Part shown: in pieces, positions 12,898-41,600 of the stretch
Numbering within the stretch: the stretch's first letter is position 1
How the letters are laid out: each line of letters begins with the position of its first letter
NCBI GenBank assembly: GCA_034180415.1
Contig: JAXFOK010000015.1
Span: 2,205 to 66,204, forward strand
DNA length: 64,000 nucleotides
From: Bdellovibrionota bacterium
GTDB taxonomy: Bacteria; Bdellovibrionota_C; UBA2361; CAKMMH01
Direction: 5' to 3'
Position numbers and translations under genes: made by a program
The notes under the pieces: model-generated
Databases searched by the model: none
What the model saw: the letters and a program-made list of their open reading frames with translations, nothing else
Told to the model about the DNA's origin: nothing

Positions 12898-14640
12898 ATG
12901 AGCAACTCTTTATTAGAACCTAACAAAGACATATTATCACGTATTGGTCATTACGTAGTAACAGATATTGGCGCAAAGAGAGAAACTAATCAAGATAATT
13001 TTATCGTCGTTTATGGTGAAAATTTCATATACTATGTCGTTTGTGATGGTATGGGCGGAACTGATGGCGGAGAAATCGCTTCCCAAATGACGGTTTCCTA
13101 TATAGATTCTGAATTAAAAGGTAAAAAAATAAGTGACATTGAAGATGTAAAAAAAGTAGTATATGAAGCTAATGAGAGAGTTTTCGAATATGGCATGGAA
13201 CATAAAGAAGTTCAAGGCCTAGGTACAACAATAACAAGTTTACTTGTGATGCCAAAAAGTTCATGGACTTTAAATGTTGGTGATTCAAGAGTTTATAAAA
13301 TCTTTGGCGATACGATAAGTCAAATTACAGAAGATGATACAGTTTTAAATGAGCTTATAAAATCTGGTGTTATATCTCAGGAAAAAGCAAAAAGTCATCC
13401 CATTTCAAATATGCTTACTAAGACTATCGGACAGGGAAAAAGTCTTGAGATTGAAACAACGAGACTCGGATTTTTAGATTATAGGGAAAGATTTATTTTA
13501 TGTTCAGATGGCTTATATAATATGGTTTCTGATAATGAAATCATGGAAATAATAAGCAATAATGATGTTAAAGAAGGTGTCAGAGGGTTAATAAAAAAGG
13601 CTAATGATAATGGTGGAATAGATAATATTACTGCGATGCTTGTAGGTGTATTTAACCAAAGAATATTATCTGATGAAGAAGAAAATAGCTTAATTGAACA
13701 ATCAAAAGCAAGGGTCGTAAAACCACAAGAGATATCAAATAATATAGATTACAATAAGCTTACTCAAAGGTTTGAGGAATTTAAAAATAGTGATGATGGC
13801 AAATATAAGAAATTATGGAATAAAACAGTTACTGACCACAATAACAATGAAAAAGTTGATGTGTCTAGTAGTGATTTAAGAGTATTAAGCCATTTAATTA
13901 TTTTAGTTGTATTGATAGTTTTAGGTTGTATTTTTGTAATTCCTAATAACAGTGTTAAACTTTCTAGGCAAATTCAAGAAGATAAATTTGAGGATAAAAT
14001 AGGCAATATTAAAGTTACAGAAGATGATTATAAGTTTAGGTTGAATTTTGAAGATAAAAAGTATGACGATAATGATAAGTTTATAGATTATTCTAAAAGA
14101 GAAATTATAGCTTATAATGAGATATTGGATATTGTTAAAAAAAGAGAAAGTTTATCAGAAGAAAAATTGTTAAGGCAAAAAAAAATATTATTAGATAGTA
14201 ATAAGGCTATAGAATCACAAATTAATAAATTGTCAGAAAAGATAAATGATATTAGAGAATATAATAACAAGAATTTATTAGATATTGCACGCGAGATATC
14301 AGAAAATGATGAAAATGTTAAAAAATTATCAGATGATTTTTTAAGTTTTTCATATGATATTCTTAATAATGATTTAAATCAAAATGATTACAATAAAATC
14401 AAAGAAGAAAAATTAAATAGGTTATATAAGCAAGTTGAGAGCTATTTTTATGATAAGATTTCTAAATATGAAATTCAAATAAAGTCTATGCAAGATAAAT
14501 TGCTTAGTAATCAATTTAATCTTTCAATTGTTGATTTAAAAATGCAATATGCAAAATTATTAGTTGATAATGAAGAAGAAAAATTAAAAGATTTTGAGGC
14601 AAAAATTAATACATTAAAGCAAAGAGTAAGCAAATCTTAA
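12898..14640 (+). CDS. PP2C-family Ser/Thr phosphatase with a C-terminal TM segment and a long coiled-coil domain
   Basis: N-terminal PPM motifs (YVVCDGMGGTDGGEIAS, ...CSDGLYNMVSDNE..., DNITAMLV). TM helix LSHLIILVVLIVLGCIFVI. The C-terminal about 230 aa is heptad-like. Confidence 0.8.
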   Translation: MSNSLLEPNKDILSRIGHYVVTDIGAKRETNQDNFIVVYGENFIYYVVCDGMGGTDGGEIASQMTVSYIDSELKGKKISDIEDVKKVVYEANERVFEYGMEHKEVQGLGTTITSLLVMPKSSWTLNVGDSRVYKIFGDTISQITEDDTVLNELIKSGVISQEKAKSHPISNMLTKTIGQGKSLEIETTRLGFLDYRERFILCSDGLYNMVSDNEIMEIISNNDVKEGVRGLIKKANDNGGIDNITAMLVGVFNQRILSDEEENSLIEQSKARVVKPQEISNNIDYNKLTQRFEEFKNSDDGKYKKLWNKTVTDHNNNEKVDVSSSDLRVLSHLIILVVLIVLGCIFVIPNNSVKLSRQIQEDKFEDKIGNIKVTEDDYKFRLNFEDKKYDDNDKFIDYSKREIIAYNEILDIVKKRESLSEEKLLRQKKILLDSNKAIESQINKLSEKINDIREYNNKNLLDIAREISENDENVKKLSDDFLSFSYDILNNDLNQNDYNKIKEEKLNRLYKQVESYFYDKISKYEIQIKSMQDKLLSNQFNLSIVDLKMQYAKLLVDNEEEKLKDFEAKINTLKQRVSKS

Positions 14641-16106: not shown

Positions 16107-16670
16107 ATGAGTGTAATAATATCTTATCAGAACAATTTATCGCTAAAAAATGAATATCTAGAAATTAGAGGTTTAGGTAGTAAAATAGGATTAGATAGAA
16201 CAGGAACTATAACAAATAGTAATGTTATTGAAGATTATTTTTCAATTTATTCAATAAATGAAGAATATGTACTAAATGTTAATGATGAAAATATATTACT
16301 TCCTAAATACTATAAAATGAATATCAATAATATGGATTTCTTTTTTTATACTATTTCACCTACATGTGAAAGTTTATCGTATGCTTGTTTTGATAAAGAT
16401 TTATCTCAAGTAAAAGAAAGAGATTTTATTACGTTAACTATTAATCATAATCTTAAAATATTAGATATAAAACTATATGAAGGGGTTGAGTATTATTTAG
16501 GCTCATCTAAAGTTTCTTCTATCTTTCTTGATGAAAATTTTGTTGCGCCTTATCATACTAAAATTAAGTATATAGATAAGAAAATACAAGTTATCGATGT
16601 TGCTGGAAGTCTTAAAAAAGAAGACGACTATTCTTACATATTAAATGATATTTTATTAAGATTTTCTTAG
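16107..16670 (+). CDS. Hypothetical protein with a possible C-terminal FHA-like domain
   Basis: The C-terminal segment ...LGSSKVSSIFLDENFVAPYHTKIKYIDKKIQVIDVAGS... weakly resembles the FHA core (G-R..D..L.D..VSR.HA.I......V.DLGS.NG). Weak call. Confidence 0.3.
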   Translation: MSVIISYQNNLSLKNEYLEIRGLGSKIGLDRTGTITNSNVIEDYFSIYSINEEYVLNVNDENILLPKYYKMNINNMDFFFYTISPTCESLSYACFDKDLSQVKERDFITLTINHNLKILDIKLYEGVEYYLGSSKVSSIFLDENFVAPYHTKIKYIDKKIQVIDVAGSLKKEDDYSYILNDILLRFS

Positions 16671-16708
16671 TTGCAAATATGCGAATAAAAGAAACTATTT
16701 TAAACTTT

Positions 16709-17050
16709 TTATTTTGAATTATTACTTGCTGCAGCTAGTGCGTCTAATTCACCGTCTGGAGAAACTATCTGAGTTACCCTTATACCAAATTTATCATTTA
16801 CTACTACTGCTTCACCTTGTGCTAATAATTTATTATTAACTCTAATATCTAAAGGTTCTTCTGGAAGTTTATTTAATTCTATAATTGAACCTTTTCTTAA
16901 TTTTATAAGTTTATCAAGAGTGCACTCAACTCTTCCTAGCTCTACAGATACTATGAGTTCTACATCATAAAAGAATTGAAGTGTACCAACTTTATCTTGA
17001 ATTGAAGCTGATTCAACAATATTCTCTTTTTCTTTTTTTTGCTCTTCCAT
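16709..17050 (-). CDS. FliN/SpoA (SctQ C-terminal) domain protein, orphan
   Basis: ELIVSVELGRVECTLDKLIKLRKGSIIELNKLPEEPLDIRVNNKLLAQGEAVVVNDKFGIRVTQI is a clear SpoA/FliN fold signature. 113 aa. No other flagellar or T3SS switch genes are adjacent. Confidence 0.75.
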   Translation of the reverse strand: MEEQKKEKENIVESASIQDKVGTLQFFYDVELIVSVELGRVECTLDKLIKLRKGSIIELNKLPEEPLDIRVNNKLLAQGEAVVVNDKFGIRVTQIVSPDGELDALAAASNNSK

Positions 17051-17235
17051 AAATTTAACCTAAGTAAAAAACTTTTCTTAGCTTATTTGATGCAAATTAT
17101 ATGAAAAAAGACTAAAAAAAGTCACAATTTTTAATATTTACTTAAAATTTTCTTCGAATTTTACCGATAAATGAAATAATCAAGGTTTATAGGTATTATA
17201 AAAAATTAGTTTTAATTGATAGATTTACGACAAAT

Positions 17236-18501
17236 ATGGAACAAATAGCTGGAAAATATAATATTATTAGGTTGTTAGGTAAAGGAGCTACTGGGGAAGT
17301 GTACCTTGTAGAGCATAATGACCTAAAGTTAGAATATGCACTAAAACTTTTGTCAAAGGAAGTTTCAAATAACGATGTGGTCGTAGAAAGATTTATAAAA
17401 GAGGCAAGATTACTAGAAAAATTTTCCCATAAAAATACTGCAAGATTAAGAGATTTTGGAAAAAATGATGATGGCCGTTATTACATGACTACTGATTTTT
17501 GTAAGGGGATTACATTAAGCGAGCTTGTAAAGAAAAGAGGGGCTATTAATTATAATTTAGCTCTTAAAATCATGATTGATATTTTAGATGTTCTATCTTG
17601 CGCACATAAAGAAGGGGTAGTTCATAGGGATATAAAATCTGAAAATGTGATAGTAAATTTTAATGAAAATTTTGATGATTATGATGAGTTAAAAGTGCTT
17701 GATTTTGGTATAGCCAAAATGAAGCAAGATATTAAATTAAATGATACAAAGACCATAGATGGTTCTGCATTAGGGACTCCTCAATATATGGCTCCAGAAC
17801 AAGCAGCTGGTGAACCTAATCTTGATCATAGGATTGATATTTATTCGGCTGGAATTGTTTTATATGAGCTTCTTGCTGGAAAAGTTCCTTTTTTTGGGGA
17901 AACTATAGTTCAAACGCTTTTAATGCATTTAACTCAGCCGATTCCTCCTTTTGATGAATCATTAAACATTCCAGAAGATGTTTCTAATATTGTTAATAAA
18001 GCATTACAAAAAATCCCTAACAATAGATATCAAACTGCTGAAATGTTTATGCAAGATTGTAAAAAGATTTTAAATTGTGAAAACGTTGGGGAAGTTTCAG
18101 GTGATAATGGTGCGTATGTTATAAATGATGAAAAAAAAGAGAAAACGAAAATTCTATGTATTGATGATAATCAGATGATTTTAAATATAATTAGCCATAT
18201 TTTAACAAAAGAGGGATTTGAAGTATTTACTACAAATGATCCGAGTACACTTCATAGTTATTTATTCCAAGAAAGAATAGATTTGTTGATTTCAGATATA
18301 AATATGCCAAGTATTAACGGTAATGATTTGTGTAAAATGTTAAAACAAACCATGCCAAGCCTTAAAATAGCACTTTTTTCGAATATTCCAGAACAAGACT
18401 TAGAAGCGCTTGCAAAAGATGCGTCAGCAGATGCTTGGATTTCAAAAAACGAAAAGCCAAATGTGTGGCTTGAAGGGATATATAAACTACTAGGAAGATA
18501 A
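17236..18501 (+). CDS. Hanks-type Ser/Thr protein kinase fused to a C-terminal response-regulator receiver (REC) domain
   Basis: Kinase motifs are intact: GKGATGEV, ALKLL (VAIK-like Lys), HRDIKSENV, DFG, APE. The C-terminal about 120 aa is KILCIDDNQMILNIISHIL ... DLLISDINMP ... IALFSN (REC with phospho-acceptor Asp). Confidence 0.85.
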   Translation: MEQIAGKYNIIRLLGKGATGEVYLVEHNDLKLEYALKLLSKEVSNNDVVVERFIKEARLLEKFSHKNTARLRDFGKNDDGRYYMTTDFCKGITLSELVKKRGAINYNLALKIMIDILDVLSCAHKEGVVHRDIKSENVIVNFNENFDDYDELKVLDFGIAKMKQDIKLNDTKTIDGSALGTPQYMAPEQAAGEPNLDHRIDIYSAGIVLYELLAGKVPFFGETIVQTLLMHLTQPIPPFDESLNIPEDVSNIVNKALQKIPNNRYQTAEMFMQDCKKILNCENVGEVSGDNGAYVINDEKKEKTKILCIDDNQMILNIISHILTKEGFEVFTTNDPSTLHSYLFQERIDLLISDINMPSINGNDLCKMLKQTMPSLKIALFSNIPEQDLEALAKDASADAWISKNEKPNVWLEGIYKLLGR

Positions 18502-18625: not shown

Positions 18626-18692
18626 TATATTGTCGAAATTCTTATTTCTTGTTAATTTTGTAATAGTTTCGTAAATATTTTGTAAAGGAATT

Positions 18693-21002
18693 ATGAAAAT
18701 GTTACAAAGAGAAAAATTATTTTTAAGTTGTGTTTTTAGTCTTGCATTTATTGTTTTAACAAATAATGGAAATGCATTGTTAATTGATGATTTTAAGGAT
18801 GTTGATAATAATGGAAATCCTCTTGGACTGCAATCAAGCGTAAATTCAACTAATAGTACAAGTTGGAATGATGTTGGGTTAGCAAATGTAGTGGGCGGTT
18901 GTCGTAAAGTTGTTTTGAGTGGAGATGGAAGTGGAGTTTTTTCAGCTGGAAAGTATTCTCACAACCAAGATGATGCAAAAACTGCAAAGTCAATAATAAC
19001 ATGGGGGGAATGTGAAGACGGTACAGTGATGTCTGAAGTAGATTTCACAAAAGATGGTTCTAAATATTTTGTAGTCAAGTATAATAGTAATGATAGCGTG
19101 GATTATAGAGGAAAAATATATTTAAGATTATGGGATAGCTCTGATCATGAAGCAAATGTTCAGTGTGATCGTTATGAATCCGAGGAAGTGTACAAATGTA
19201 TGTACAAAAAATATACAGATGTTGATGTCGAGCTAGATAAGATTGTAAAGATTCAGTTGATAATGGATGGTTCAAGTGCATCTGGTTGGGATTTCGGTAT
19301 TGAGTCAGTTTTGACTGGAAATAGCCAAAATACAGTTTGTGGTGTTGTTCCTACTGCATCAAATAATTATGGTGCTAAAGATGAATGTGGATTCTGTCCA
19401 AATGATATAATGCCTGATAAATATCAATATGGTCAAGGAAAAGATGAGTGTGATTATTGTCCAAATGATACTTTGCCTGCTAACTATCAATATGGTGATG
19501 GAAAAATTTGTCGTAATTCATGTGATGTAAATCAAAATTGCGGATGGTGTCCAACAATCGATAATCCAGGAAAAGCTCATCAGAGGTATACTTGTAAGCA
19601 ATGTGATGATGGAATGGATAATGACGGAAAGGGTGATATTGACTGTGCTGATCCTCAATGCTTAAAGGGGGTTAATGGAAGCTGTGATCCTAACTATAAT
19701 AGTGAAGCACCACAGTGTAGCAATAAGAAAGATGATGATAATGATGGTAAGGTAGATAAAAACGATCCAGCATGTCTTGATGAAAATGGCAATTATAACC
19801 CAGACCTTGATGATGAATCAGATGAACCTGCTTGTTCTGATAAAGCAGATAATGATGGTGATGGTTTGATTGATTCAAAAGATCCTGGTTGCTATGCGAA
19901 AAATCCAAATACTGGAAAATATGAATATAAGCCAAATAAAAAGAGTGAAGAAGGACCAAATACTGAATGTTCAGATTCAAAAGATAATGATGGTGATGGA
20001 TATATTGATAGTAAAGATCCTGATTGTTGGTATACTGATTCAATTAAGTTAGGTGGAACTAAAGACTATTCAAATGAATCACCTTTTTATGATTGGAATC
20101 CTTGGGATCTTTCAGAAAGTGGTGCAAGAAAGTATCAATGTTCAGATGGAAAGGATAATGATGATGATGGGTTAGTTGATGCGCAAGATCCTGGATGTTT
20201 AGATGATAGTGGTAATTGGAATCCTAAGAAAGATAGCGAAATTAATTCAGATGATGGAAAACCAGAATGTTCAGATGGTAAGGATAATGATAAAGATGGA
20301 TATATAGATTATCCTGATGATCCAGGTTGCACATCAAAGGATGATGATTCTGAAAATGACAACATTACAAAGCCTGAATGTTCTGATGGTATTGATAATG
20401 ATAAAGATGGAAAAATTGATGAAGCTGATACTTCATGTTGGGTTTATGATAATAATGGAAATCCAATTAAGTACGATCCTAATATCGATGATGAATCAGG
20501 ATGTACAACAACTTCTAATGTAAGTAACTTAGATGTTGATAATGAAAGATTAGCTACAATTGGTTTAAATGCTGCTTTATATTTAAAGAGATTCCATGCT
20601 AATTCAAGTAATGAATATAAGAGAACTACTCTTTCTGCAAAACGTGCTGGAACTAAGATTAGTAAGGAAATTAATAAGGTGGTGACAGATTTGAAATCTT
20701 ATTCAGTTTCTTGTAATAGTCAGACAGGTTCTTCATGTAGAAATAACAATAATACAGAGCTTAACAAGTTTTCACAACAAGTTAGTCAATTAAATAAACT
20801 TGTTCGTCGTGCACAAAGAAGAGGTTTGTTCTTTAAGAAGAATTTTGAAAGCAAGGCAATTTCAAAAGCTAAGCAACAAAAAGCAGGTTACAAAAATGCA
20901 AAAGCTACTATGACTAATAACAGAAAGGCTGGAACAAGAATAACTGTTTATAATAATATAAATGCCAAGGTTAGTAGTATTAAGTCATTAGCTATTTGCT
21001 AA
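18693..21002 (+). CDS. Secreted protein (769 aa) with tandem Cys-bounded Asp-rich calcium/metal-binding-type repeats (TSP3/MopE-like) and a basic Lys/Arg-rich C-terminal domain
   Basis: Signal peptide. CPND-containing units (CGFCPNDIMPDKYQYGQG, CDYCPNDTLPANYQYGDG). At least 7 units of C-S-D-x-K-D-N-D-x-D-G-x-(I/V)-D-x-x-D-P-x-C (e.g. CSDKADNDGDGLIDSKDPGC, CSDSKDNDGDGYIDSKDPDC). Basic tail rich in K/R/N/S. Confidence 0.8.
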   Translation: MKMLQREKLFLSCVFSLAFIVLTNNGNALLIDDFKDVDNNGNPLGLQSSVNSTNSTSWNDVGLANVVGGCRKVVLSGDGSGVFSAGKYSHNQDDAKTAKSIITWGECEDGTVMSEVDFTKDGSKYFVVKYNSNDSVDYRGKIYLRLWDSSDHEANVQCDRYESEEVYKCMYKKYTDVDVELDKIVKIQLIMDGSSASGWDFGIESVLTGNSQNTVCGVVPTASNNYGAKDECGFCPNDIMPDKYQYGQGKDECDYCPNDTLPANYQYGDGKICRNSCDVNQNCGWCPTIDNPGKAHQRYTCKQCDDGMDNDGKGDIDCADPQCLKGVNGSCDPNYNSEAPQCSNKKDDDNDGKVDKNDPACLDENGNYNPDLDDESDEPACSDKADNDGDGLIDSKDPGCYAKNPNTGKYEYKPNKKSEEGPNTECSDSKDNDGDGYIDSKDPDCWYTDSIKLGGTKDYSNESPFYDWNPWDLSESGARKYQCSDGKDNDDDGLVDAQDPGCLDDSGNWNPKKDSEINSDDGKPECSDGKDNDKDGYIDYPDDPGCTSKDDDSENDNITKPECSDGIDNDKDGKIDEADTSCWVYDNNGNPIKYDPNIDDESGCTTTSNVSNLDVDNERLATIGLNAALYLKRFHANSSNEYKRTTLSAKRAGTKISKEINKVVTDLKSYSVSCNSQTGSSCRNNNNTELNKFSQQVSQLNKLVRRAQRRGLFFKKNFESKAISKAKQQKAGYKNAKATMTNNRKAGTRITVYNNINAKVSSIKSLAIC

Positions 21003-21003
21003 T

Positions 21004-21388
21004 AAAATTGACGATGCATCCAAGATTGCGTCGTTATTCGAGAGAGATGCCGTCCTCGCTGTACTTAATAGTACAGCTGTGGGTGCATCCTCTCGAATGC
21101 CTAGCACTCTTGGCGCCTCGTCAATTTTATATATTAAGACGATGCATGTGATGATGCTACGTTCATTTTGAGGGATAAACGGTCCTTGCTGTACTTAATA
21201 GTACAGCTGTGGGAGCATCCTCCCGAATGCCTAGCACTCTTGGCGCCTCGTCAATTTTATATATTAAGACGATGCATGTGATGATGCTACGTTCATTTTG
21301 AGGGATAAACGGTCCTTGCTGTACTAATCGTACAGCTGTGGGAGCATCCTCTCGAATGCCTAGCACTCTTGGTGCCTCGTCAATTTTA
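21004..21388. repeat. Tandem array of three family-A palindromic elements (units about 121 nt)
   Basis: Copy 1 is 21004–21128. Copies 2 and 3 (21129–21249, 21250–21388) form a 121-nt direct repeat (atattaagacgatgcatgtgatgatgc...). Each has a central hairpin gctgtacttaatagtacagc and a 3' module gaatgcctagcactcttggcgcctcgtcaatttt. Termini are inverted complements. The ORF 21163..21408 is a repeat artefact. Confidence 0.8.
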
Positions 21389-21514
21389 TAAAATGGACCT
21401 TTTAACAACCCCTAAAAGGTAAAAGTTTTAATGGGTTGGTGCGTAATTAAAGTTTGCTGTGAAAAATTTCGATATTGAGTATAGGTTGGATTATATTTTT
21501 TTAAGTTTTAAGCT

Positions 21515-22762
21515 ATGAAATTATTAATTATTGATGTTTCAACAGAAGCTCAAGCAAAGTGTGCTAAAAAAATAGAGCCTTTTAATAGAAGTGATGTCGA
21601 AATGCTTGATTTAAAAATCAAGCTTGCAAACGAGCAAACTTATAAAGATATTCTAGAAGGAGCAGATGTTGCAATACTTGGTGCAGGGTTAGGTGAGTCT
21701 GCAATAGTGGTCGCAAGAGAGATTGCAAGCGTGTGCCCTTGGATGAATATTATAATGTTTGTTAAAGAGTCATTATACGGTGGAAGCTCTTTTAGAAGCG
21801 CACATTCAGTGGGCGTAAGAAAAGTTTTTTCTGATAACGCAAGTCCTCTTGATTTCTTGCAAGAACTTGTAGCAATTCACAGTGAATTTAGAAAAGAAGG
21901 TCGAGCCAGGGAAGGTATAGTTGTCGCGGTGAATCATGCCAAGGGAGGCGTCGGAGCAACTTCAATTTGCGCAGCTCTTGCAGAGGTTTGTGGAGTTTAT
22001 AATAAAAGGACACTTCTTTGGGATTTAGATGTCGAGACAAGAGATTTAAGTCGCTCTCTTACTGCAAGTGGAACAGAAGCCAAAGTAGTTTCATCGTGGG
22101 TTAATGGTTCAAGAGAAATTTCAAGAGAATCTTTAAAAGATGCACTTTTACCTATAAGTAATGAAGTTTCAATATTAATTCCACCAGATTGTATGGCTGA
22201 GTCTATGGATTTAGTGTGTCATACAGATAGTATAGCTCTTTGTAGTAGAATTTTAGAGCTTTCAAGAGTGCTTTTTGACGTAATTATTATTGATACTGGT
22301 GGAAGAATGGGACCTGCTACTGGAGCAGTAGTAAGAAATAGTGATAAAACTTTAATTGTTATTGATGATACGATTTTGGGACTAACAGCTGTCGATCTTT
22401 ATTTAAATTTTATTAAGAGTTTAGTTGGAACTCCAGATAGAATTAATTTTTTAATAAATCAATATACTGGAAATCTTCTTACAAAAAATCAGATTGAAGC
22501 TGAGTTAGAACCTATTCATAGGTTAGGACATGAGGTTTGGAGCTTAGATCCAGTGTATATGGACCCAAAAGCTAGCCTTTGGTCAGCAAGTGGTAAGACG
22601 CTTTATAGTTTAGGTAATAGAAATACAAGAGTTGCTCTAGAAAAGATGGCTGTAATTCTAGGACTTACTATTCAACATGGCGTAGTAAAGAGAGAAAACC
22701 AAGCAAATAATAACCAAAAAGAAAAAGGACATAAGTTTTTGAATTTTTTTAATAAAAAATAA
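21515..22762 (+). CDS. tadZ: TadZ/CpaE-type pilus-assembly ATPase (ParA/MinD-like, N-terminal degenerate receiver domain)
   Basis: N-terminal MKLLIIDVSTEAQAK REC-like fold. Deviant Walker A AVNHAKGGVGATSICAALA. 415 aa. Located at the head of the flp operon. Confidence 0.8.
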   Translation: MKLLIIDVSTEAQAKCAKKIEPFNRSDVEMLDLKIKLANEQTYKDILEGADVAILGAGLGESAIVVAREIASVCPWMNIIMFVKESLYGGSSFRSAHSVGVRKVFSDNASPLDFLQELVAIHSEFRKEGRAREGIVVAVNHAKGGVGATSICAALAEVCGVYNKRTLLWDLDVETRDLSRSLTASGTEAKVVSSWVNGSREISRESLKDALLPISNEVSILIPPDCMAESMDLVCHTDSIALCSRILELSRVLFDVIIIDTGGRMGPATGAVVRNSDKTLIVIDDTILGLTAVDLYLNFIKSLVGTPDRINFLINQYTGNLLTKNQIEAELEPIHRLGHEVWSLDPVYMDPKASLWSASGKTLYSLGNRNTRVALEKMAVILGLTIQHGVVKRENQANNNQKEKGHKFLNFFNKK

Positions 22763-27411: not shown

Positions 27412-29496
27412 ATGAAGAAATTTCAGATTCAAGGGCAAGATTTTGTATTAGCACTTTTTGTGCTATCAATTACCGCAATGCTTGTAATACCACTTCCTAC
27501 AAGTATGCTTGATTTCTTGCTTGTTATTAACATTTCATTTTCATTGCTTCTTTTACTTGCTGGATTATATATGCCAAATGCGTTGGCATTAATTTCTTTT
27601 CCTTCACTTCTTTTATTAACAACACTTTTTAGATTAGGTTTAAATGTAGCATCTACAAGATTAATTTTGAGCCAAGGAGATGCAGGCCATGTTATTGAGG
27701 CTTTCGGTACATTCTTAATTAGAGGTGAAGTAACAATTGGTGTTATTATATTTTTAATAATAACAATTGTAAATTTTATAGTTATCGCAAAAGGTGCAAA
27801 TCGTGTATCAGAGATTACAGCAAGATTTTCACTAGAATCGCTTCCTGGAAAACAAATGGCAATAGACTCTGATCTTCGTTCAGGAGTCATTGATGTTAAT
27901 CAAGCTAGAAAAAGAAGAGATGACTTAAGAAAAGAATCACAGCTTTATGCTGCTATGGACGGAGCGATGAAATTTATTCAAGGTGATGCAATTGCGGGCT
28001 TCTTTATAACACTTACAAATATTATAGGTGGTTTGTATATAAGTTTAAGAGGTGGAATGAGCCTTGGTGAAGCTGTAGAAACTTATACAACGTTAACTGT
28101 AGGTGATGGATTAGTTAGTCAAATTCCTGCGCTTTTAATATCAATATGCGCTGGTATCGTTGTTACAAGAGTTAGCTCAGGTGAAAATTCAACACTTGGT
28201 AAAGAACTTCAAGGACAACTTCTTAGTAGTCCAAGTATTATAATTTTTACAGGTTCTGTACTATTTTTCTTTGCTATACTCCCAGGACTTCCTGCATTAC
28301 AATTTATAAGTGTTGGTACGTTCTTAATAAGTGTTGGTTTATATTTAAATTACAAAAAAAGAGAAAGTACAAGAAATGTGGAGTTTCTTCCAATATCAGT
28401 TCTAAAGGCAAATCGAGAATTGTTAGAAAGCGATAATAGTAAAATACAAAATGTATTTCAAATATTTATAGATAAAGAGTTTGGAAGTTACGTAAATGAT
28501 AACTCACTTTCTATTTTACAGAAATGTAATGAGTATAAGGAAAATTTTAAAAAAATGACAGGTTTCGAGTTTCCTCAATTTAAATTTGTCATAAAAAATG
28601 AAATATTAAAAAATGCATTTAAAGTTTATAAATTGAACACGCTTGTCGTAGAATCTAGTTTTAAAGATGACATGATATATTTAAATATTAATAAATCTGA
28701 GCTTCCAATTTTGGGATTAAAAGATTTTGTTGAGGATTATCATCCTATATATGGAAATAAACTTTATGGCGTTATTAAAAATACATATACAAGTTTGTTA
28801 TGTGAAGAAACGGATTTAATGTATTATGATAAAATCGATTGGATTTTATTAAATATTGCAAGTTTTTGCATTGATAATCCAATAGAGTTTTTTAGCATTT
28901 CGGATATTACAAAAGTGTTGAAAGATATAGAAAAAGATTATCCAGAGATAATAAAAGATTTGTTTTCTATACCCAAAGTTAATAGTGCAAAAATTTTCAA
29001 AGTATATGCTGAGCTCATGAGACAAGAGATATTTTATATATCACATAAAGAAATTTTAGAAGGTATTATTTCATATTTTAATGGTTATAATGTATCTGAC
29101 GAATCTGATTTTGATGTATTTAATATTGTAAGTTATATAAGGCAAAGTAAAAAATTACATGTTACGTATAATTCAATTTATAAAGATAAAAGAATAAAAC
29201 TTTGTAGTATTTCAGATGAACTTCAAGAAACTTTTGAAGAAATGATACCACAAGTTTATGAGGGAAGTGTTAATTTAGATTTAAAAGATTTTGGGGTAAT
29301 TAAGAATAATATTGTGGCACTTCAAAGACCATATTTAGAAAAAGGTGTAACAAGCTTTTCGATAGTTAGTTCTAAAGAGTTAATACCTGTTATATATAGT
29401 GTACTTAAGATTTTTCAATTAAAGATTAATATAGTAGAATTTGATGAGTTAACATCTGATTTAAAAATAGAACATATTGGAATTTGGAGAAAATGA
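27412..29496 (+). CDS. FlhA/SctV-family (FHIPEP) type-III export-gate protein paralog, encoded at the 3' end of the tad operon
   Basis: The N-terminal 330 aa align almost residue-by-residue with the FlhA membrane domain (LLLTTLFRLGLNVASTRLIL, ITARFSLESLPGKQMAIDSDL, MDGAMKFIQGDAIAG, TVGDGLVSQIPALLISICAGIVVTRV). The C-terminal cytoplasmic domain is divergent but retains an FlhA-like stretch (KENFKKMTGFEFPQFKFVIKN, cf. RKKFAQDMGFLPPVVHIRDN). Confidence 0.85.
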   Translation: MKKFQIQGQDFVLALFVLSITAMLVIPLPTSMLDFLLVINISFSLLLLLAGLYMPNALALISFPSLLLLTTLFRLGLNVASTRLILSQGDAGHVIEAFGTFLIRGEVTIGVIIFLIITIVNFIVIAKGANRVSEITARFSLESLPGKQMAIDSDLRSGVIDVNQARKRRDDLRKESQLYAAMDGAMKFIQGDAIAGFFITLTNIIGGLYISLRGGMSLGEAVETYTTLTVGDGLVSQIPALLISICAGIVVTRVSSGENSTLGKELQGQLLSSPSIIIFTGSVLFFFAILPGLPALQFISVGTFLISVGLYLNYKKRESTRNVEFLPISVLKANRELLESDNSKIQNVFQIFIDKEFGSYVNDNSLSILQKCNEYKENFKKMTGFEFPQFKFVIKNEILKNAFKVYKLNTLVVESSFKDDMIYLNINKSELPILGLKDFVEDYHPIYGNKLYGVIKNTYTSLLCEETDLMYYDKIDWILLNIASFCIDNPIEFFSISDITKVLKDIEKDYPEIIKDLFSIPKVNSAKIFKVYAELMRQEIFYISHKEILEGIISYFNGYNVSDESDFDVFNIVSYIRQSKKLHVTYNSIYKDKRIKLCSISDELQETFEEMIPQVYEGSVNLDLKDFGVIKNNIVALQRPYLEKGVTSFSIVSSKELIPVIYSVLKIFQLKINIVEFDELTSDLKIEHIGIWRK

Positions 29497-29497
29497 T

Positions 29498-31828
29498 ATG
29501 GCTGATAATAATAATAGTTTAATAATTATTAATTCTATAAATGAGCTTTATAAAATAGAGTCTAGTATAGCTATTACAAATAGTTCTGAAAGTTTTAAAG
29601 CTGTCGAGATTAGTACAGGAAGAAGTGTGATTTTATCTGTATTAAAAAGAAAATTTAACGTTTATTTAGATCCTAAAGAAATCTCACAATTTTTAGATAG
29701 ACTTAATAAGATTCAAACTTTTGGAAGTTCGCTTTCTTCATTAATTAGTTTTGGTGTTGATAAGGATGGAGTAGGGTATTCGGTATGTGCTATTTCCTCG
29801 GTTAACTCGGTCTTATCTGGAACTATCAACTATGGTGAGGCAACTAGACGTTTAGAAGCTGTTTTGCAGATTCTTATGAAAATGCATAAAGCAGATATAG
29901 CTTGTGGTGATATATGTAATGATTCATTTTTTATAAGTAGAGAAGGGAATATCGGATTATTAGCTATAAATGGGACTTACCCTAGAAAAAGTGATGAAAA
30001 CTTAACAAACAGTCATTATGCACTTCCTAATATTCATGAACCAATATCAATATTAAGTGATATCTATAGATTAGGAATACTTAGCTATAAATTATTTTTA
30101 AATGATTATGATGCATATCCTTTTGATGAAAATAATAATTATATTCAATTAATTTCTTTAAATTGTGATATACCAAGTTATATCGATTTAGCAATAAAAA
30201 CATGTTTAAGTGTAAATCCAGAGGGAAGATTTAGTAATGCTGAAGAGCTTTTTAATTATATTAAATCAGAGCGAGAAAAAGATTCATCAAACGATAACTC
30301 CTTAACTTCTATAAATCCTACAAATGATGAGTTTTCAAAAGTTAAGGTGCTTAATGAAATAGCACTTAGAGAAGAAGTAAATAGTAAAAATAAAAAGATG
30401 AAGGCTACATTAGGCATTGTGGGAGTAGTCTTAATTGTATTTTTTGTGATTATCTTTTTAAGCCAAAATCGAGGAAGAGGTAATAATGGTGTATTAAATA
30501 TGAGAAGAAACACCCAAACAAGTGAAAGCCAGTTAAGAGAGCAAGAAGAAAAATTAAAAAGAATATACGATAGTGAAGATCCGCTAATGTATGTTGCAAT
30601 GGTTAATATGGCAAATAAAGCCTTAAATCCTCAACAAAGAAAATTAGTAGAAAAATATATTGTAAAAAGATTTAAAAATTATCAATATGATAATCTTGTA
30701 GTTATATTAGAAGATTTTTTATCAAGTATAGTTGGTAATGAGATTCCAGAGTTTTATGAAAAATTATTACTTGCTCTTGATAAAAAATATCCGATTGAGA
30801 AAAGGGGAGTTATTTTTAAAGAGCTTTCTAAAAACAATAAAAGTTTAATTGTCGATTTAGCAATAGCTTTATCGTTAGATGATAATAATGAAAAAAGTTA
30901 TAGAGATGTTTTTGTAAGTTTTCTTGATGATGAGTTTAAAAAAGATATTCAGAGGAGATCTTTTGATGCACTATTAATTGCAGAATACTTCTCATGGCAA
31001 AAATATGAGAGCTTACTAAAAGAAAAACTTACAAAATTATCTGATGAAGATTTAGTATGGATTGTTCCAATTTTTGTTAAAAGAAATGATAAATACCTTG
31101 AAAATGTTATCGATTTAATTACAAAAAGACATTTACTTGATGATGTACAGTCAAGCTTTTTATCGCTTATTAATGAATTAAATCCTCCAAAAGAAATTAA
31201 GGATATCTTATTAAAAGCTAGTACATCTCAGATTACACAAAATGACATTCAAGTAGTTTCAAATTGGATTAATATTAATAAAGAAAAAATATTATATGTG
31301 ATGATATTAGCGTTAAAAACAGATATTTCGCTTAAAAGAGAAATATTTGATATATTTTCAGTAACTAGAGTTCAAGATGAGTTAATTAATAAATATGTCA
31401 AATTTGTTAAAGAAAATTTATGGAATAATAGAGGTGAGCTTACTACTTTGATACCATATTTATTAAAATCAAAAGATTATTCTGAGGATAAACTATTAAA
31501 TGCTATTAAATATAGTATAAAGAAATTAAGTAGTTCGGATAAAAGTAAAATATTAACAGAACTTGTTGAAATCGCTGATGATAAAATTAAAACAATTATT
31601 TTTGAAAATTTCTATGAAGATTTAGGAGTAGGGGTCTTAGTAAATTATCTTTCTTATGATGATAAAAATATTAAGAAACTTGCACTAAAAGGATTAAAGG
31701 AATCAGGTATTGATGACATCATTATCTCAAATCTAATTATTGAAAAGTATGATGAAGAAGATGATGACGAAATAAGAAATATGTATAAATCAAATTTCTG
31801 GTTTATAAGAAAAAGAGAATTAGAATAA
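29498..31828 (+). CDS. Membrane pseudokinase: N-terminal degenerate protein-kinase-like domain, TM helix, C-terminal helical-repeat (HEAT/ARM-like) domain
   Basis: The kinase fold is recognisable (YKIESSIAI..., HKADIACGDICNDSFFI in place of HRDLKxxN, ING in place of DFG, ...SDIYRLGILSYKLF) but G-loop, HRD and DFG are degenerate. TM segment ATLGIVGVVLIVFFVIIFL. The start sits 1 nt after the FHIPEP stop (tgatATGg). The track start 29477 is in-frame upstream, but the coupled ATG at 29498 is preferred. Confidence 0.5.
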   Translation: MADNNNSLIIINSINELYKIESSIAITNSSESFKAVEISTGRSVILSVLKRKFNVYLDPKEISQFLDRLNKIQTFGSSLSSLISFGVDKDGVGYSVCAISSVNSVLSGTINYGEATRRLEAVLQILMKMHKADIACGDICNDSFFISREGNIGLLAINGTYPRKSDENLTNSHYALPNIHEPISILSDIYRLGILSYKLFLNDYDAYPFDENNNYIQLISLNCDIPSYIDLAIKTCLSVNPEGRFSNAEELFNYIKSEREKDSSNDNSLTSINPTNDEFSKVKVLNEIALREEVNSKNKKMKATLGIVGVVLIVFFVIIFLSQNRGRGNNGVLNMRRNTQTSESQLREQEEKLKRIYDSEDPLMYVAMVNMANKALNPQQRKLVEKYIVKRFKNYQYDNLVVILEDFLSSIVGNEIPEFYEKLLLALDKKYPIEKRGVIFKELSKNNKSLIVDLAIALSLDDNNEKSYRDVFVSFLDDEFKKDIQRRSFDALLIAEYFSWQKYESLLKEKLTKLSDEDLVWIVPIFVKRNDKYLENVIDLITKRHLLDDVQSSFLSLINELNPPKEIKDILLKASTSQITQNDIQVVSNWININKEKILYVMILALKTDISLKREIFDIFSVTRVQDELINKYVKFVKENLWNNRGELTTLIPYLLKSKDYSEDKLLNAIKYSIKKLSSSDKSKILTELVEIADDKIKTIIFENFYEDLGVGVLVNYLSYDDKNIKKLALKGLKESGIDDIIISNLIIEKYDEEDDDEIRNMYKSNFWFIRKRELE

Positions 31829-35993: not shown

Positions 35994-37076
35994 ATGACAT
36001 CAGATTTTATAAGAAAGACTTTAATTCCTAATAATGAAGATATGCAATCTTGGAGTAATTTATCAAGTCTTGCTGGCGATTCTAGTAGTGATGATGAACA
36101 AGAAGGAAGCAGTATAAAATCTTTAAGACCAAATGCGTTTTTAGAGTATATAGGTCAAGATAGGGTAAAGGAAACAGTAAAAATTGCATGTAGCGCAGCA
36201 TTAAAAAGAGAGGATACATTAGATCATATTTTGTTTCATGGGCCTCCAGGACTTGGAAAAACTTCAATGGCAAGATTAATTGCAAATGAGCTTGGAGTAG
36301 GGTTTAAGACCACATCTGGTCCTGTTATCGAAAAACCAGGGGATTTGGCTGCAATTTTAACAAGTCTAAATGAAAATGATGTATTATTTATAGATGAAAT
36401 TCATAGGATTCCAAGAGTTGTAGAAGAAGTTTTATATCCAGCTATGGAAGATTTTGAAATTGACATTATGATAGGAAACGGTCCTGCTGCAAAATCAATA
36501 AAAATCGATTTAAAACCATTTACTTTAATAGGTGCTACAACTAGGACAGGGCTTTTAACTTCCCCTCTAAGGGATAGATTTGGGCTAATTTTAAGACTTG
36601 ATTTTTATAAGATTGAAGAGCTTAGAGATATAGTTCTTCGTTCAGCTAGCATACTAAATTTAAAAATTGATGATTTAGGCGCTTTAGAAATTGCAAGACG
36701 CTCTAGGGGAACACCAAGAATTGCAAATAAGCTTTTAAAGCGCGTTAGAGATTATGCTCAAACGAATAACTCTGATGTTATCAATAAAGAGATTGCTAAA
36801 AAAGCGTTAGATTTTCTTCAAATTGATAATCTTGGTCTTGATGAGATGGATAGGTTTATTTTAAAAACTATAATTGAAAAATTTCAAGGAGGTCCTGTAG
36901 GTATAGAAACTATATCATCAGCAATAGGTGAAGAAAAAGACACAATTGAAGATGTTTATGAACCATATTTAATCCAAGAAGGATTTCTTATAAGAACAAA
37001 AAGGGGACGTGTCGTAACAGAGCAAGGTTATAAACATCTAGGAATAAAATTTAACGGTGAATTATTGTTTGTTTAG
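35994..37076 (+). CDS. ruvB: Holliday-junction branch-migration ATPase RuvB, with an about 55-aa Ser/Asp-rich N-terminal extension
   Basis: Walker [21 protein letters not shown], Walker [10 protein letters not shown], sensor motifs and the C-terminal winged helix. The N-terminus ([40 protein letters not shown]) is longer than in canonical RuvB. Confidence 0.95.
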
Positions 37077-37115
37077 ATAATTTAATTCGTTGATAATAAA
37101 AAAGAAAAATAGTTT

Positions 37116-39356: not shown

Positions 39357-39730
39357 AAAATTGGCGATGCATCGCGAAGATTGTTGCGTTATTTGAATGT
39401 AAGTCTTGCTAGCTGTACAAAAGTACAGCGTCGCTTCGAGTTCATTCAAATGCCTTGCACTCTTCGCGCCTCGCCAATTTTTTATAGGCAAAGAGAAGAG
39501 AAAGATTTTGGCGATGCATCGCGAAGATTGCTGCGTTATTTGAATGTAAGTCTTGCTAGCTGTACAAAAGTACAGCGTCGCTTCGAGTTCACTTAAATGC
39601 CTTGCACTCTTCGCGCCTCGCCAATTTTTTATAGGCAAAGAGAAGAGAAAGATTTTAGCGATGCATCGCGAAGATCGCTGGTTATTTGAATTTAACTCTT
39701 GCTAGCTGTACAAAAGTACTGCTACATACC
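39357..39730. repeat. Tandem array of family-A palindromic elements (two full units of about 149 nt plus a truncated third)
   Basis: Each unit is aaaattggcgatgcatcgcgaagattg ... gctgtacaaaagtacagcg ... caaatgccttgcactcttcgcgcctcgccaatttttt, separated by the spacer ggcaaagagaagagaaagatt. The termini are inverted complements. ORFs 39231..39638 and 39381..39596 are repeat artefacts. Confidence 0.8.
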
Positions 39731-39848
39731 TGACCCGTAAGGGTAATGGTACCTGCAGGTCTAAATTTTTGCACAAAATGTGATTTGATTCGAGAAATTA
39801 TGGGATATTTGCGATTTGATTCTGAATCGTAAGAATTTTAAGGAAAAA

Positions 39849-41006: not shown

Positions 41007-41221
41007 AGATCAAACCTTGCAATAAAAATAATACTACTATTAAAAATAGTTAAAATGAATATGTATAAATGAATATTAGTTTCCTAAAACATTCCACTTG
41101 TTAACTTATCAATCTTTGCCTGGTAATAGGAATCAGATTTTTTATATTCATCAAAGACATCATATAAAGTAACAAATATTTTTGCAATATTACTTCGAAC
41201 GACATGAACGATGATATCACT

Positions 41222-41320
41222 GAAGCTTAAAAAAATAACAAGACGCAAAAAAGGCGAGGCATTTGAGGGGGACCAACCGGAGGCGTGCTTTTGTACGTTG
41301 AGGATTGGTCCTCTTTGGAA
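41222..41320. repeat. Family-E element, truncated copy (5' half)
   Basis: gcttaaaaaaataacaagacgcaaaaaaggcgaggcatttgagggggaccaaccggaggcgtgcttttgtacgttgaggattggtcctc matches 41458.. over about 95 nt. ORFs 41084..41326 and 41448..41642 are repeat artefacts. Confidence 0.7.
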
Positions 41321-41457
41321 AAACAAAAATAAAGTTTTAGGTATTAAATATGGTTGAAGAATATGTTAAAAGTGTATGCTTGATTCCGGAAAAAGGATGA
41401 GGCACCGGCAATGATAGGCATTTTCATAAAAAGCGAGAGAAAGAGGGATGATTTATA

Positions 41458-41600
41458 AGAAGCTTAAAAAAATAACAAGACGCAAAAAAGGCGAGGCATT
41501 TGAGGGGGACCAACCGGAGGCGTACTTTTGTACGTCGAGGATTGGTCCTCCCTCAAATAACGAAGCATTTTTTGATGTATTGTTATTTTTTTTAAGCTTG
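41458..41600. repeat. Family-E palindromic element, complete copy (about 140 nt)
   Basis: Outer inverted repeat gcttaaaaaaataacaa ... ttgttattttttttaagc. Inner inverted repeats gcatttgagggggaccaa ... ttggtcctccctcaaata and ggaggcgtacttttgtacgtcgagg. It abuts the stop of the minus-strand gene 41592..42149. Its aaaaaaggcgaggcatttga module is the reverse complement of the family-A 3' module with the central part deleted. Confidence 0.7.

Follow-up and report, generated by a model that had tools for sequence, protein, structure and literature searches.

A complete open reading frame in the window, the whole 64 kb stretch of Bdellovibrionota DNA that was analysed, encodes a soluble Hanks-type serine/threonine kinase with a response regulator receiver (REC) domain at its C terminus. 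The matches found place it in a large conserved family concentrated in the Bdellovibrionota, the receivers of which are systematic orphans. We consider it somewhat more probable than any contrary view that the receiver acts as input switch to the kinase, served by a phosphodonor to which it is not genetically linked. On this evidence the gene is an ordinary member of a family that databases annotate automatically, and a variant of known signalling parts; no description of the kinase-REC family was found in the literature. Two-component and Hanks-type signalling are generally viewed as running in parallel, meeting only through occasional cross-phosphorylation. If the receiver were truly the sole regulator of an intact Ser/Thr kinase, the protein would couple the two as a hard-wired converter, and its family a simple model for the control of a protein-kinase fold by receiver phosphorylation.

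Domains of the kinase-REC protein

The gene is divided as follows:
17236-18501, + strand: complete kinase-REC open reading frame, 421 aa, predicted soluble Hanks-type Ser/Thr kinase with C-terminal receiver
17257-18048, + strand: kinase catalytic domain, residues 8-271 (Pkinase, PF00069)
18049-18150, + strand: interdomain linker, residues 272-305, predicted to be disordered from about 283 to 301
18151-18462, + strand: REC domain, residues 306-409, helix 5 of which runs on to about residue 420

The initial annotation described an intact Hanks kinase fused to a receiver that retains its phospho-acceptor aspartate, and suggested searching for both domains with profile models. These searches bore out the fusion: Pkinase (PF00069) aligned with residues 8-271 over profile positions 1-258 of 263 (160.1 bits, E 8.9e-47; gathering cut-off 31.7 bits), and Response_reg (PF00072) with residues 306-409 over positions 1-104 of 111 (68.5 bits, E 7.1e-19; gathering cut-off 30.2 bits).

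All the catalytic residues of the kinase are there, namely the Gly-loop (G15, G17 and G20), K37, E56, H130-R131-D132, N137, D156-F-G, T173, T181 and P187-E188; the codons for K37, D132 and the activation-loop threonine T173 lie at 17344-17346, 17629-17631 and 17752-17754 respectively. K37, E56, H130, D132, D156-F-G, T181 and P187-E188 were unchanged in 60 of 60 homologues, which extended down to around 43% identity, and the Gly-loop, VAIK lysine, alphaC glutamate, HRD aspartate, asparagine, DFG and APE were each either invariant or conserved in at least 56 of the 60. R131, which makes the protein an RD kinase, is present in 56 members, whilst the position of T173 is occupied by threonine or serine in 47. 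The domain aligned over its full length with the solved domains of Stk1, PknB and StkP (E 5e-47). In the AF2 model it has the bilobal protein-kinase fold, with a pLDDT of about 90 or more, and superposed on M. tuberculosis PknB (Foldseek matches 5u94 and 1o6y) with target-normalised TM scores of 0.92-0.93 and an rmsd of 1.8-2.2 Å. We regard it as an intact, PknB-like domain and a putative ATP-dependent Ser/Thr kinase.

The closest relatives in both sequence (S. aureus Stk1/PknB, E 5e-47) and fold (PknB, TM 0.93) are thus the PASTA kinases PknB, Stk1 and PrkC, with which the protein also shares the RD motif and the activation-loop threonine. However, it has neither the transmembrane (TM) helix nor the extracellular PASTA repeats of these kinases, and a cytoplasmic receiver occupies the slot of the sensor or dimerisation region. 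It likewise falls outside the Stk1/PknB equivalog NF033483: its score of 254.6 bits is well below the cut-off of 450, and only profile positions 5-294 of 563 are aligned.

In the receiver, the signature quintet consists of the acidic pair D310-D311, the phospho-acceptor D354 (codon GAT at 18295-18297, as checked in the DNA), S382 at the Thr/Ser position and K404 at the Lys position. The five line up with their counterparts in PhoP, CpxR and CheY. Each was unchanged in all 60 homologues, and the switch aromatic, W401, was tryptophan or phenylalanine in every one. The lack of a Response_reg match, or of the Asp/Thr/Lys triad, had been named as grounds for abandoning the fusion; with 68.5 bits and D354, S382 and K404 in place, neither was observed. 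The domain aligned with PhoP, CpxR, CheY and others (59 PDB matches, E around 1e-10), and the model of residues 305-420 contains five strands alternating with five helices in a (beta-alpha)5 fold, with block-mean pLDDT values of approximately 84-94. Four further residues, C366, K370, P408 and W411, are both invariant and specific to the family, the receivers of which score 180-207 bits against the family REC profile whereas other receivers reach at most 61 bits. The family RECs therefore form a subfamily of their own with tight conservation, as would suit a receiver with a dedicated partner. The invariance of the Asp pocket across the family, to around 43% identity, speaks for a functional Asp phosphorylation, as opposed to a relic, and the conservation of residues in both domains would be expected only if Ser/Thr and Asp phosphorylation were both under selection.

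No TM segment was predicted in the protein, the highest mean Kyte-Doolittle value over 19 residues being 1.32, nor did Pfam and hydropathy reveal any other sensor domain besides the kinase and REC. HisKA and HATPase_c gave no match. The linker ranges from 25 to 95 residues in length across the homologues and has a pLDDT below 50 at residues 283-301; with this segment disordered and a pTM of 0.72, the full-length AF2 model predicts a flexible connection that leaves free the arrangement of kinase and receiver in space.

A family of orphan receivers

The fusion is no one-off: a search of relatives, as had been proposed, returned many proteins of the same kind. The best 120 database matches were all full-length with the kinase-REC architecture, and those that were named came from Bdellovibrionota or SAR324. 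A profile search covering 1.84 billion representative sequences was dominated by tandem-kinase proteins; at least around ten clusters at 50% identity with exactly this architecture were present among its best 150 matches. A contig profile search with the full-length family alignment responded to generic kinase motifs and found mostly unrelated Hanks kinases, the useful loci being L016, L019, L025 and L036.

Only one histidine kinase (HK) was found in 222 kb around 16 family loci, compared with 5.5 per 100 kb around generic RECs, and no HK, Hpt or other phosphodonor linked to the family was found at these 16 loci. Hence the family REC is a systematic orphan receiver. Members at 43-49% identity occupy unrelated gene contexts. 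A distant member (L087) lies just downstream of a cluster resembling a type III secretion system or flagellar export apparatus (FHA/YscD, FliF/YscJ, FliMN_C, FliP and FliQ), whilst another (L088) is divergent from a T2SSE ATPase that bears a REC of its own.

The one candidate donor in the window is:
37116-39356, + strand: NtrY-like HK (NtrY_N-HAMP-PAS-HisKA-HATPase_c)

The initial annotation stated that no HK is adjacent to the kinase-REC gene, that this NtrY-like kinase is an orphan without its own regulator, and that the two might be paired. The first two observations held. No HisKA/HATPase protein besides the NtrY-like one was found in the 64 kb, and its gene starts 18.6 kb downstream of the kinase-REC gene with at least 12 unrelated genes between; no REC other than that of the kinase was detected in the window, and the 3' side of the NtrY-like gene consists of a repeat-rich non-coding stretch followed by an HD-domain gene on the other strand. 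Tandem intergenic repeats in the window had no Rfam match and no visible link to the kinase-REC gene.

The pairing itself is conjecture, nothing specific having been found to link the two proteins, and we think it decidedly doubtful that the NtrY-like kinase is the cognate phosphodonor. It is suggested by the window holding one HK and one REC only, by the orthologues of the NtrY-like kinase in Bdellovibrionota, which at three NtrY loci always follow RuvB and never have an adjacent regulator, and by the presence of both genes in two of the two relatives' assemblies that were checked. In one of these, GCA_050952645.1, they are probably on a single contig, the longest reported for each being 354,834 bp, and both families are widespread in the phylum with similar divergence. 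However, any two genes with wide conservation in the phylum would be expected to turn up together in three genomes, the kinase-REC and NtrY-like genes are on different contigs in GCA_964534945.1, and, as well as being well separated here, they are adjacent at none of the 16 family loci and three NtrY loci. Nor does the receiver resemble NtrX or NtrC: it scored 41.6 bits against the ntrC model (cut-off 558.6), no better than against OmpR, no NtrX structure was present among its 59 PDB matches, and the protein contains no AAA+ or HTH output, such that it does not classify as NtrX. Furthermore, the 64 kb are the only visible part of a genome in which other orphan kinases would be usual, as bacterial genomes generally hold many of them.

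Other fusions of Hanks kinases and receivers are arranged as kinase-REC-HD-GYP (L019, from a Chloroflexi MAG, and L025), REC-kinase (L016, from a Gemmatimonadota MAG, and L121 and L122), kinase-REC (L036) and kinase-REC-kinase (P0382). The last of these is an exception, its match to the full-length family profile extending over positions 3-427. The RECs of the others are unrelated to the family subfamily, reaching at most 48 bits where family members score 180-207. Most are probably independent fusions, distinguished by extra domains or the reverse order. The Chloroflexi-type kinase-REC-HD-GYP protein was considered as an ancestor of the family and rejected, as such RECs score around 35 bits against the family REC profile.

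Neighbourhood of the gene

The features surrounding the gene are:
12898-14640, + strand: PstP-like membrane-anchored PP2C Ser/Thr phosphatase, 580 aa (PP2C_2, E 1.9e-12)
16107-16670, + strand: clade-restricted open reading frame, 187 aa, always beside the kinase/FliN module
16709-17050, - strand: FliN/SctQ-type C-ring protein, 113 aa (FliMN_C, E 4e-23), divergent partner of the kinase-REC gene
17051-17235, no strand: AT-rich intergenic region, 185 bp, common to the divergent FliN-like and kinase-REC genes
16708-18486, no strand: unit of FliN, intergenic region and kinase-REC, inverted relative to close relatives

The pairing of FliN and kinase genes is kept in the relatives at 80% and 69% identity. 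The inversion of the unit is based on its blastn orientation against L081 and on the gene order in L081, L082 and L086; no convincing inverted repeats flank the segment, the match found being 17 nt long and 82% identical in AT-rich DNA, one among 114 comparable pairs. Promoter-like hexamers occur on both strands of the 185 bp intergenic region, no more commonly than in shuffled sequence.

The 187 aa product is probably a divergent FHA-fold protein of the YscD-like type. Three orthologues have sub-threshold matches to FHA or Yop-YscD_cpl, the top PDB profile match is the FHA domain of YscD at a non-significant E value of 0.81, and the top Foldseek matches are FHA domains, from a poor AF2 model (pLDDT 53.6). 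It contains the motif G132-S-S...A147-P-Y-H150, and lacks the canonical phospho-Thr-binding Arg and Ser. With each of the FHA signals non-significant, the model poor and these residues missing, a kinase/phosphatase/FHA triad is not claimed. The phosphatase has its PP2C domain at approximately residues 27-214 and a TM segment at approximately 330-348 (19-residue Kyte-Doolittle mean of 3.1); it is a candidate for reversing the action of the kinase, and is syntenic only in the close relatives at 69% and 80% identity. The synteny of all three genes, encoding PP2C, FliN and the FHA-like protein, is confined to a narrow clade.

Over a wider range, the kinase-REC gene has been conserved vertically, in synteny with housekeeping genes (MutS, amidase and DprA). 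Its locus in the window also adjoins Tad pilus and FlhA genes.

The receiver as proposed input to the kinase, and other readings

As the protein has no TM or other sensor domain, the REC is the only candidate input; as the established chemistry of both families does not, to our knowledge, allow a Hanks kinase to phosphorylate aspartate, an outside source of the Asp-phosphate is required. Which way the signal runs, how dimerisation would operate and what the phosphodonor and substrates are we infer as follows. An HK or phosphorelay encoded elsewhere, or possibly a small-molecule donor of the acetyl phosphate type, would phosphorylate D354, upon which the S382/W401 switch would remodel the alpha4-beta5-alpha5 face of the receiver. 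This would either alter self-association, PknB being activated by dimerisation, or release the tethered kinase domain, which could then autophosphorylate its activation loop at T173 and go on to phosphorylate Ser/Thr substrates. The PstP-like PP2C encoded 2.6 kb upstream might reverse the signal in this clade, and the most plausible area of action would be the FliN-type and FHA-like proteins encoded alongside, together with the nearby Tad pilus and flagellar machinery.

The RD kinase, conserved activation-loop threonine, PknB-like fold and disordered linker of variable length all support the receiver acting as input. Further support, albeit indirect, comes from kinase/REC fusions of other lineages encoded beside HKs, which demonstrate that such proteins can be wired into phosphorelays: a hybrid HK and single RECs come after the kinase-REC-HD-GYP gene in L019 and L025, and two HKs precede the REC-kinase in L016. 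The synteny of PP2C in the relatives at 69% and 80% identity is a further point in favour. Against this analogy, the RECs of these HK-adjacent fusions are unrelated, at no more than 36 bits against the family REC profile, and that of L019 and L025 may control the HD-GYP domain instead of the kinase. The lack of a linked HK, Hpt or other donor at the 16 loci makes the input entirely hypothetical. The narrow range of the synteny of the PP2C, FliN and FHA-like genes also counts against the model, as does the loose placement of the two domains in the AF2 prediction. The initial annotation had a His-kinase phosphorelay gating the kinase, or the reverse. With all the signature residues conserved, the first is the most economical reading; the second cannot mean Asp phosphorylation by a Hanks kinase, which leaves phosphorylation of the receiver on Ser/Thr as its one possible sense.

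Such reverse wiring, in which the kinase would be the input or actuator and the receiver a CheY-like output adaptor, is in our view unlikely. The kinase would phosphorylate its own receiver or be tethered to it, the receiver docking on C-ring proteins of the FliN/SctQ type, on pilus or secretion ATPases or on a phosphorelay, with the consequence that Ser/Thr phosphorylation would modulate Asp-phosphate signalling. Phosphorylation of response regulators by Hanks kinases in trans is well documented (reviewed in PMC4601284), and the genomic associations point the same way: the kinase gene is divergent to a FliN-type gene with which it has stayed together through an inversion, the L087 and L088 members lie by export and secretion genes, and the locus in the window abuts those for the Tad pilus and FlhA. 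However, these links to appendages differ from one locus to another and are missing at most loci, the kinase would have no input for want of a sensor domain of its own, the fully conserved Asp pocket would still need an external phosphodonor, and no conserved Ser/Thr site was identified in the REC.

Phosphorylation-independent receivers typically lose at least one of the acidic pocket, Thr/Ser or Lys residues. The retention of all five pocket residues and the aromatic switch in all 60 homologues accordingly makes it very unlikely that this one is a pseudo-receiver, a dimerisation or scaffolding module holding the kinase active or localised, even though the absence of a linked phosphodonor would be explained and the invariant C366, K370, P408 and W411 of helices 3 and 5 point to a fixed protein-protein interface; atypical receivers of this sort are known (PMC4395418). 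PADLOC matches to the PD-T4-6 models (E down to 6e-75), as well as to mad6, MkoA and PglW, raised the possibility that the protein is a PD-T4-6-like kinase of anti-phage defence. Nearly all of these cover the generic kinase domain (approximately residues 3-316, with one PD-T4-6 model extending to 354), as would be expected for any PknB-like kinase, whilst the NCBIfam scores are far below the cut-offs (143 bits against 460 for MAD6, 87 against 990 for PglW). PADLOC found no other defence genes among the neighbours, which are housekeeping, pilus and flagellar genes, and the vertical conservation alongside MutS, amidase and DprA also counts against a defence role, which we reject as having next to no chance of being correct.

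Being concentrated in this phylum, the family could supply candidates for known gaps in the Ser/Thr signalling of predatory Bdellovibrionota, where the kinase activating or gating DgcB, and hence prey invasion, is still not identified (PMC6733907). There is a slim chance that the family links a His-Asp relay to processes gated by Thr phosphorylation in these predators, with a surface or prey-contact signal passing via an orphan HK, possibly the RuvB-linked NtrY-like protein, to the Ser/Thr phosphorylation of FHA-type or appendage targets. Candidates among such targets would be FliN and the C-ring, the machinery of the Tad or type IV pilus, and enzymes gated by an FHA domain, of which DgcB is an example.

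Receivers are covalently coupled to a Ser/Thr phospho-signalling enzyme in the REC-PP2C regulators, for example RsbY of Bacillus cereus. In both RsbY and the kinase-REC protein the fusion would allow a His-Asp relay to set Ser/Thr phosphorylation; here, however, the enzyme is a kinase and not a phosphatase, it is N-terminal to the REC, in reverse of the usual REC-output order, and there is no HK nearby. Hybrid HKs have the same order of kinase then receiver, but the absence of HisKA and HATPase_c means that this protein is not one of them, and, in contrast to the hybrids, intramolecular phosphotransfer is impossible for a Hanks kinase unable to phosphorylate aspartate, hence its receiver must be served in trans. 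The cyanobacterial proteins of the HstK type combine a Hanks kinase domain and a histidine kinase domain. These too bridge both phosphorylation systems within one protein, although HstK carries the transmitter side and the kinase-REC protein the receiver side. Ser/Thr phosphorylation is also tied to two-component receivers in the cross-talk of Stk1 with CovR and PknH with DosR, as covered in a review (PMC4601284). In those pairs the proteins are separate and the kinase acts on the regulator as its substrate, whereas in the kinase-REC protein the two are fused and control is likely to run from receiver to kinase.

Domain structure and conservation of the kinase-receiver protein

The ORF, which lies at exactly 17236..18501 as initially annotated, is on the + strand, has an ATG start and encodes 421 aa. 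It contains a Hanks-type Ser/Thr kinase domain followed by a receiver (REC), and is referred to here as kinase-REC. Both domains exceed their Pfam gathering scores: PF00069, protein kinase, covers residues 8-271 (160.1 bits against 31.7; E 8.9e-47) and PF00072, response-regulator receiver, residues 306-409 (68.5 bits against 30.2; E 7.1e-19). The top NCBIfam kinase model is that of the Stk1/PknB PASTA-kinases, but as just its catalytic half is aligned, scoring 254.6 bits where the cut-off is 450, the protein is PknB-like rather than a PASTA kinase. The solved kinase domains of Stk1, StkP, PknB and PknA align end to end with the catalytic part (E 5e-47 to 3e-37), and PhoP, CpxR, CheY, ArcA, DivK and others with the receiver part (E ~1e-10 to 1e-5). 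These receiver alignments identify the acidic pair as D310-D311, the phospho-acceptor Asp as D354, the Thr/Ser as S382 and the Lys as K404, in agreement with the earlier proposal that the acceptor is retained, and the codons of the key residues were confirmed in the window DNA. No hydrophobic segment was found in the protein (maximum 19-residue Kyte-Doolittle mean 1.32).

Searching 5.8 billion protein clusters produced 6,957 matches, the best 120 of which all have both PF00069 and PF00072, are 416-567 aa long and show 97-100% query coverage with 43-99% identity. Hence the fusion, originally noted in one protein, defines a family. The few named members among these 120 come from Bdellovibrionota or Bdellovibrionales MAGs and one SAR324. 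In an alignment of 60 members, with 43-84% identity to the window protein, the kinase residues K37, E56, H130, D132, D156-F157-G158, T181 and P187-E188 are invariant, bearing out the description of the catalytic domain as intact. R131 is present in 56 of 60, making this an 'RD' kinase family, and the activation-loop position T173 is Thr or Ser in 47. D310, D311, D354, S382 and K404 are each found in 60/60, so the expected Asp/Thr/Lys set is complete throughout; the aromatic switch position, W401, is always W or F. The linker between the domains ranges in length from 25 to 95 residues. In an AlphaFold2 model made from this alignment both domains are confident (mean pLDDT 86.7), with disorder limited to the activation loop (162-178) and linker (283-301), and superposition of the kinase part on M. 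tuberculosis PknB gives a target-normalised TM score of 0.93 and an rmsd of ~2 A. Of the 50 best PDB matches listed for the model, none spans both domains.

Family members score 180-207 bits against a REC-only profile and all other receivers sampled 61 bits or less; hence the family receiver represents a distinct, tightly conserved subfamily. Its family-specific invariant residues (C366, K370, P408 and W411) may mark an interface. Within this large, conserved and uncharacterised family, whose members are annotated in databases only as 'protein kinase', the window gene is an ordinary representative. Both domains are canonical, and the architecture is already in databases through automatic cataloguing; no published account of it or of the family was found in the literature searched, and a survey from 2005 of the architectures of prokaryotic Ser/Thr kinases mentions no receiver fusion.

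Gene neighbourhood and synteny

With about 30% GC, the window is AT-rich; the genes around kinase-REC are arranged as follows.

5234, + strand: MutS
7930, + strand: amidase
9254, + strand: poly(A) polymerase-like protein
11385, + strand: SPOR-domain protein
12898-14640, + strand: 580-aa PP2C phosphatase carrying a central TM helix (19-residue Kyte-Doolittle mean 3.1)
14889, + strand: DprA
16107-16670, + strand: 187-aa ORF without a Pfam family
16709-17050, - strand: FliN-type protein
17236-18501, + strand: kinase-REC
18693-21002, + strand: secreted Asp/Cys-repeat protein, 769 aa
21515-27346, + strand: Tad/Flp pilus genes (CpaE/TadZ-like, CpaB/RcpC, CpaF, TadB, TadC)
27412, + strand: FlhA

Loci of the orthologues with 80% and 69% identity (L081, L082 and L086) share the order PP2C, DprA, small ORF, kinase-REC/FliN and large secreted protein. 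By blastn against L081, window positions 16708-18486, comprising FliN, the kinase gene and the 185 bp between them, are in the opposite orientation to all of the flanking DNA, which is collinear with the relatives; hence the whole divergent FliN/kinase-REC module is inverted in comparison with these relatives. No convincing inverted repeats were found at the breakpoints, just a weak 17-nt pair (16691-16707 and 18654-18670). Members with 43-49% identity have unrelated genomic contexts. GreA lies within ~6 kb of kinase-REC in six distant loci (L083, L084, the contig encoding P0028, L092, L095, where it abuts the gene, and L099), which is probably ancestral synteny. In L087 (82-9374) kinase-REC is immediately downstream of a cluster resembling T3SS or flagellar export genes (two FHA/YscD-like, YscJ/FliF, FliMN_C, FliP and FliQ), and in L088 (5553-9458) it is divergent from an MshEN-T2SSE ATPase with its own REC; these appendage-gene associations are suggestive but heterogeneous.

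The 187-aa ORF is clade-restricted, with five database matches, and consists of two all-beta halves. All three orthologues have sub-threshold Pfam matches to FHA or Yop-YscD_cpl in a common C-terminal region, the top PDB profile match is the YscD FHA domain (E 0.81) and Foldseek, run with a model of low quality (pLDDT 53.6), matches FHA domains almost exclusively, among them those of GarA, OdhI, FhaA and Bdellovibrio DgcB. These three weak but concordant signals make an FHA-like (YscD-like) protein probable. Its phospho-dependence is uncertain: at the phospho-Thr-binding positions the canonical Gly-Arg is replaced by G132-S133 and Ser-x-x-His by A147-P-Y-H150, resembling the non-canonical T3SS FHA domains. 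Given the weakness of these signals and the loss of the canonical Arg and Ser, a kinase/phosphatase/FHA triad is not claimed.

The 769-aa protein has a signal-peptide-like N terminus, no Pfam family and at least four copies of C-x-D-x-x-D-[ND]-D-x-D-G-x-x-D-x-x-D-x-x-C, which resembles a calcium-binding repeat; its counterparts vary in size (493 + 269 aa in L081, 663 aa in L086). The CpaE/TadZ-like ATPase (21515-22762) has an N-terminal region of ~130 residues without a Pfam match and unseen by the receiver profile, which by analogy with TadZ may be a degenerate pseudo-receiver. A 783-aa ORF without a Pfam family (29477-31828) directly follows FlhA, with overlapping stop and start; this position is often occupied by FlhF. 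Intergenic tandem repeat arrays, none with an Rfam match, lie at 21037-21420 (three copies of ~130 bp), 39361-39800 (three of ~147 bp) and 41210-41564 (two 118-nt copies 237 bp apart); their GC content is above that of their surroundings, and they contain spurious repeated ORFs on both strands.

An orphan receiver and its likely role

An HMM of the HisKA/HATPase core was built from verified kinases and used to scan six-frame ORFs. Of 69 loci with a generic receiver at the centre, 25 contained histidine kinases (HKs), a density of 5.5 per 100 kb; near unrelated Hanks kinases the density was 1.2 per 100 kb. The 16 kinase-REC family loci (222 kb) contain one, in L084, which has its own adjacent regulator. 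The family receiver is a systematic orphan, so any HK that phosphorylates D354 would always be encoded elsewhere.

The initial annotation proposed as a possible partner the NtrY-like kinase at 37116-39356 (+ strand; NtrY_N, HAMP, PAS, HisKA and HATPase_c domains), which is the only HK in the 64-kb window, just as the REC of kinase-REC is the only detectable receiver. That this kinase is itself an orphan, as initially described, holds across the phylum. It is followed by tandem repeats and then an opposite-strand HD-domain gene, with no ntrX; orthologues with 72%, 41% and 41% identity to it are in every case preceded by RuvB, sometimes with DUF4390 between (window 35994-39356, L089 and L090), and none has an adjacent regulator. 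Both proteins occur in both of the relatives' assemblies that could be checked, probably on one contig in GCA_050952645.1 (354,834 bp is the longest reported for each), but the genes are on different contigs in GCA_964534945.1 and never adjacent, and the receiver resembles those of NtrC/NtrX no more closely than it does OmpR-type receivers. Support for the pairing, with 64 kb of this genome to judge from, is thin, and it appears improbable.

Hanks kinases transfer phosphate to hydroxyl groups, and hence cannot load D354; together with the strict conservation of the Asp-phosphorylation apparatus, this implies an external donor. Of the two directions of signalling originally envisaged, it is gating of the kinase by the receiver that stands as the most economical model, with the receiver, the sole non-catalytic domain of a soluble protein, somewhat favoured as the input switch. 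We infer that phosphorylation of D354 would remodel the alpha4-beta5-alpha5 face via S382 and W401, altering self-association or an intramolecular contact; in a PknB-like RD kinase such as this one, the change would control autophosphorylation of the activation loop (T173). PknB is activated by dimerisation. In the window's clade, the upstream membrane-anchored PP2C would be the obvious candidate for reversal.

The reverse wiring seems rather unlikely; in it the kinase would act on the receiver to which it is fused, or the receiver would serve FliN-type or pilus proteins as a CheY-like adaptor. A phosphorylation-independent scaffold is disfavoured by the intact receiver quintet and is less plausible than the NtrY pairing, whilst a PD-T4-6-type defence kinase is hardly credible, as the PADLOC matches span essentially just the kinase domain. 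The initial observation is borne out, and its interpretation in part. Kinase-REC is a PknB-like kinase with an orphan receiver as its likely sensor, a variant assembled from known signalling parts rather than a system of a new kind; as a fusion it would convert, in a neat and testable way, between the two main bacterial phosphorylation systems. In Bdellovibrio, the kinase that phosphorylates DgcB, an FHA-gated cyclase, has yet to be identified (PMC6733907), which offers a speculative though testable place to seek the family's function.

Hanks-kinase/receiver fusions elsewhere

Such fusions recur in several forms even in a small sample. A kinase-REC-HD-GYP protein is found in a Chloroflexi MAG (L019, 9980-14832) and an unclassified MAG (L025, 6751-11959), lying in both between a PAS-GAF-LuxR regulator and a hybrid HK (HisKA-HATPase-REC-REC), which precedes stand-alone receivers. 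The arrangement resembles a phosphorelay operon tying Ser/Thr phosphorylation to c-di-GMP hydrolysis. A REC-kinase is directly downstream of two HKs in L016 (3320-10792), another of ~450 aa is present in L121 (7935-9296) and L122 (7340-8701), and L036 has the kinase-REC order. The receivers of all these fusions are unrelated to that of the kinase-REC family, hence the fusions probably arose independently; they do show that phosphorelay wiring is possible for such proteins. The 819-aa database protein P0382 has a kinase-REC-kinase arrangement, and looks like a fused form of the adjacent-gene layout on the P0028 contig, where the 3' end of kinase-REC and a further kinase gene overlap.
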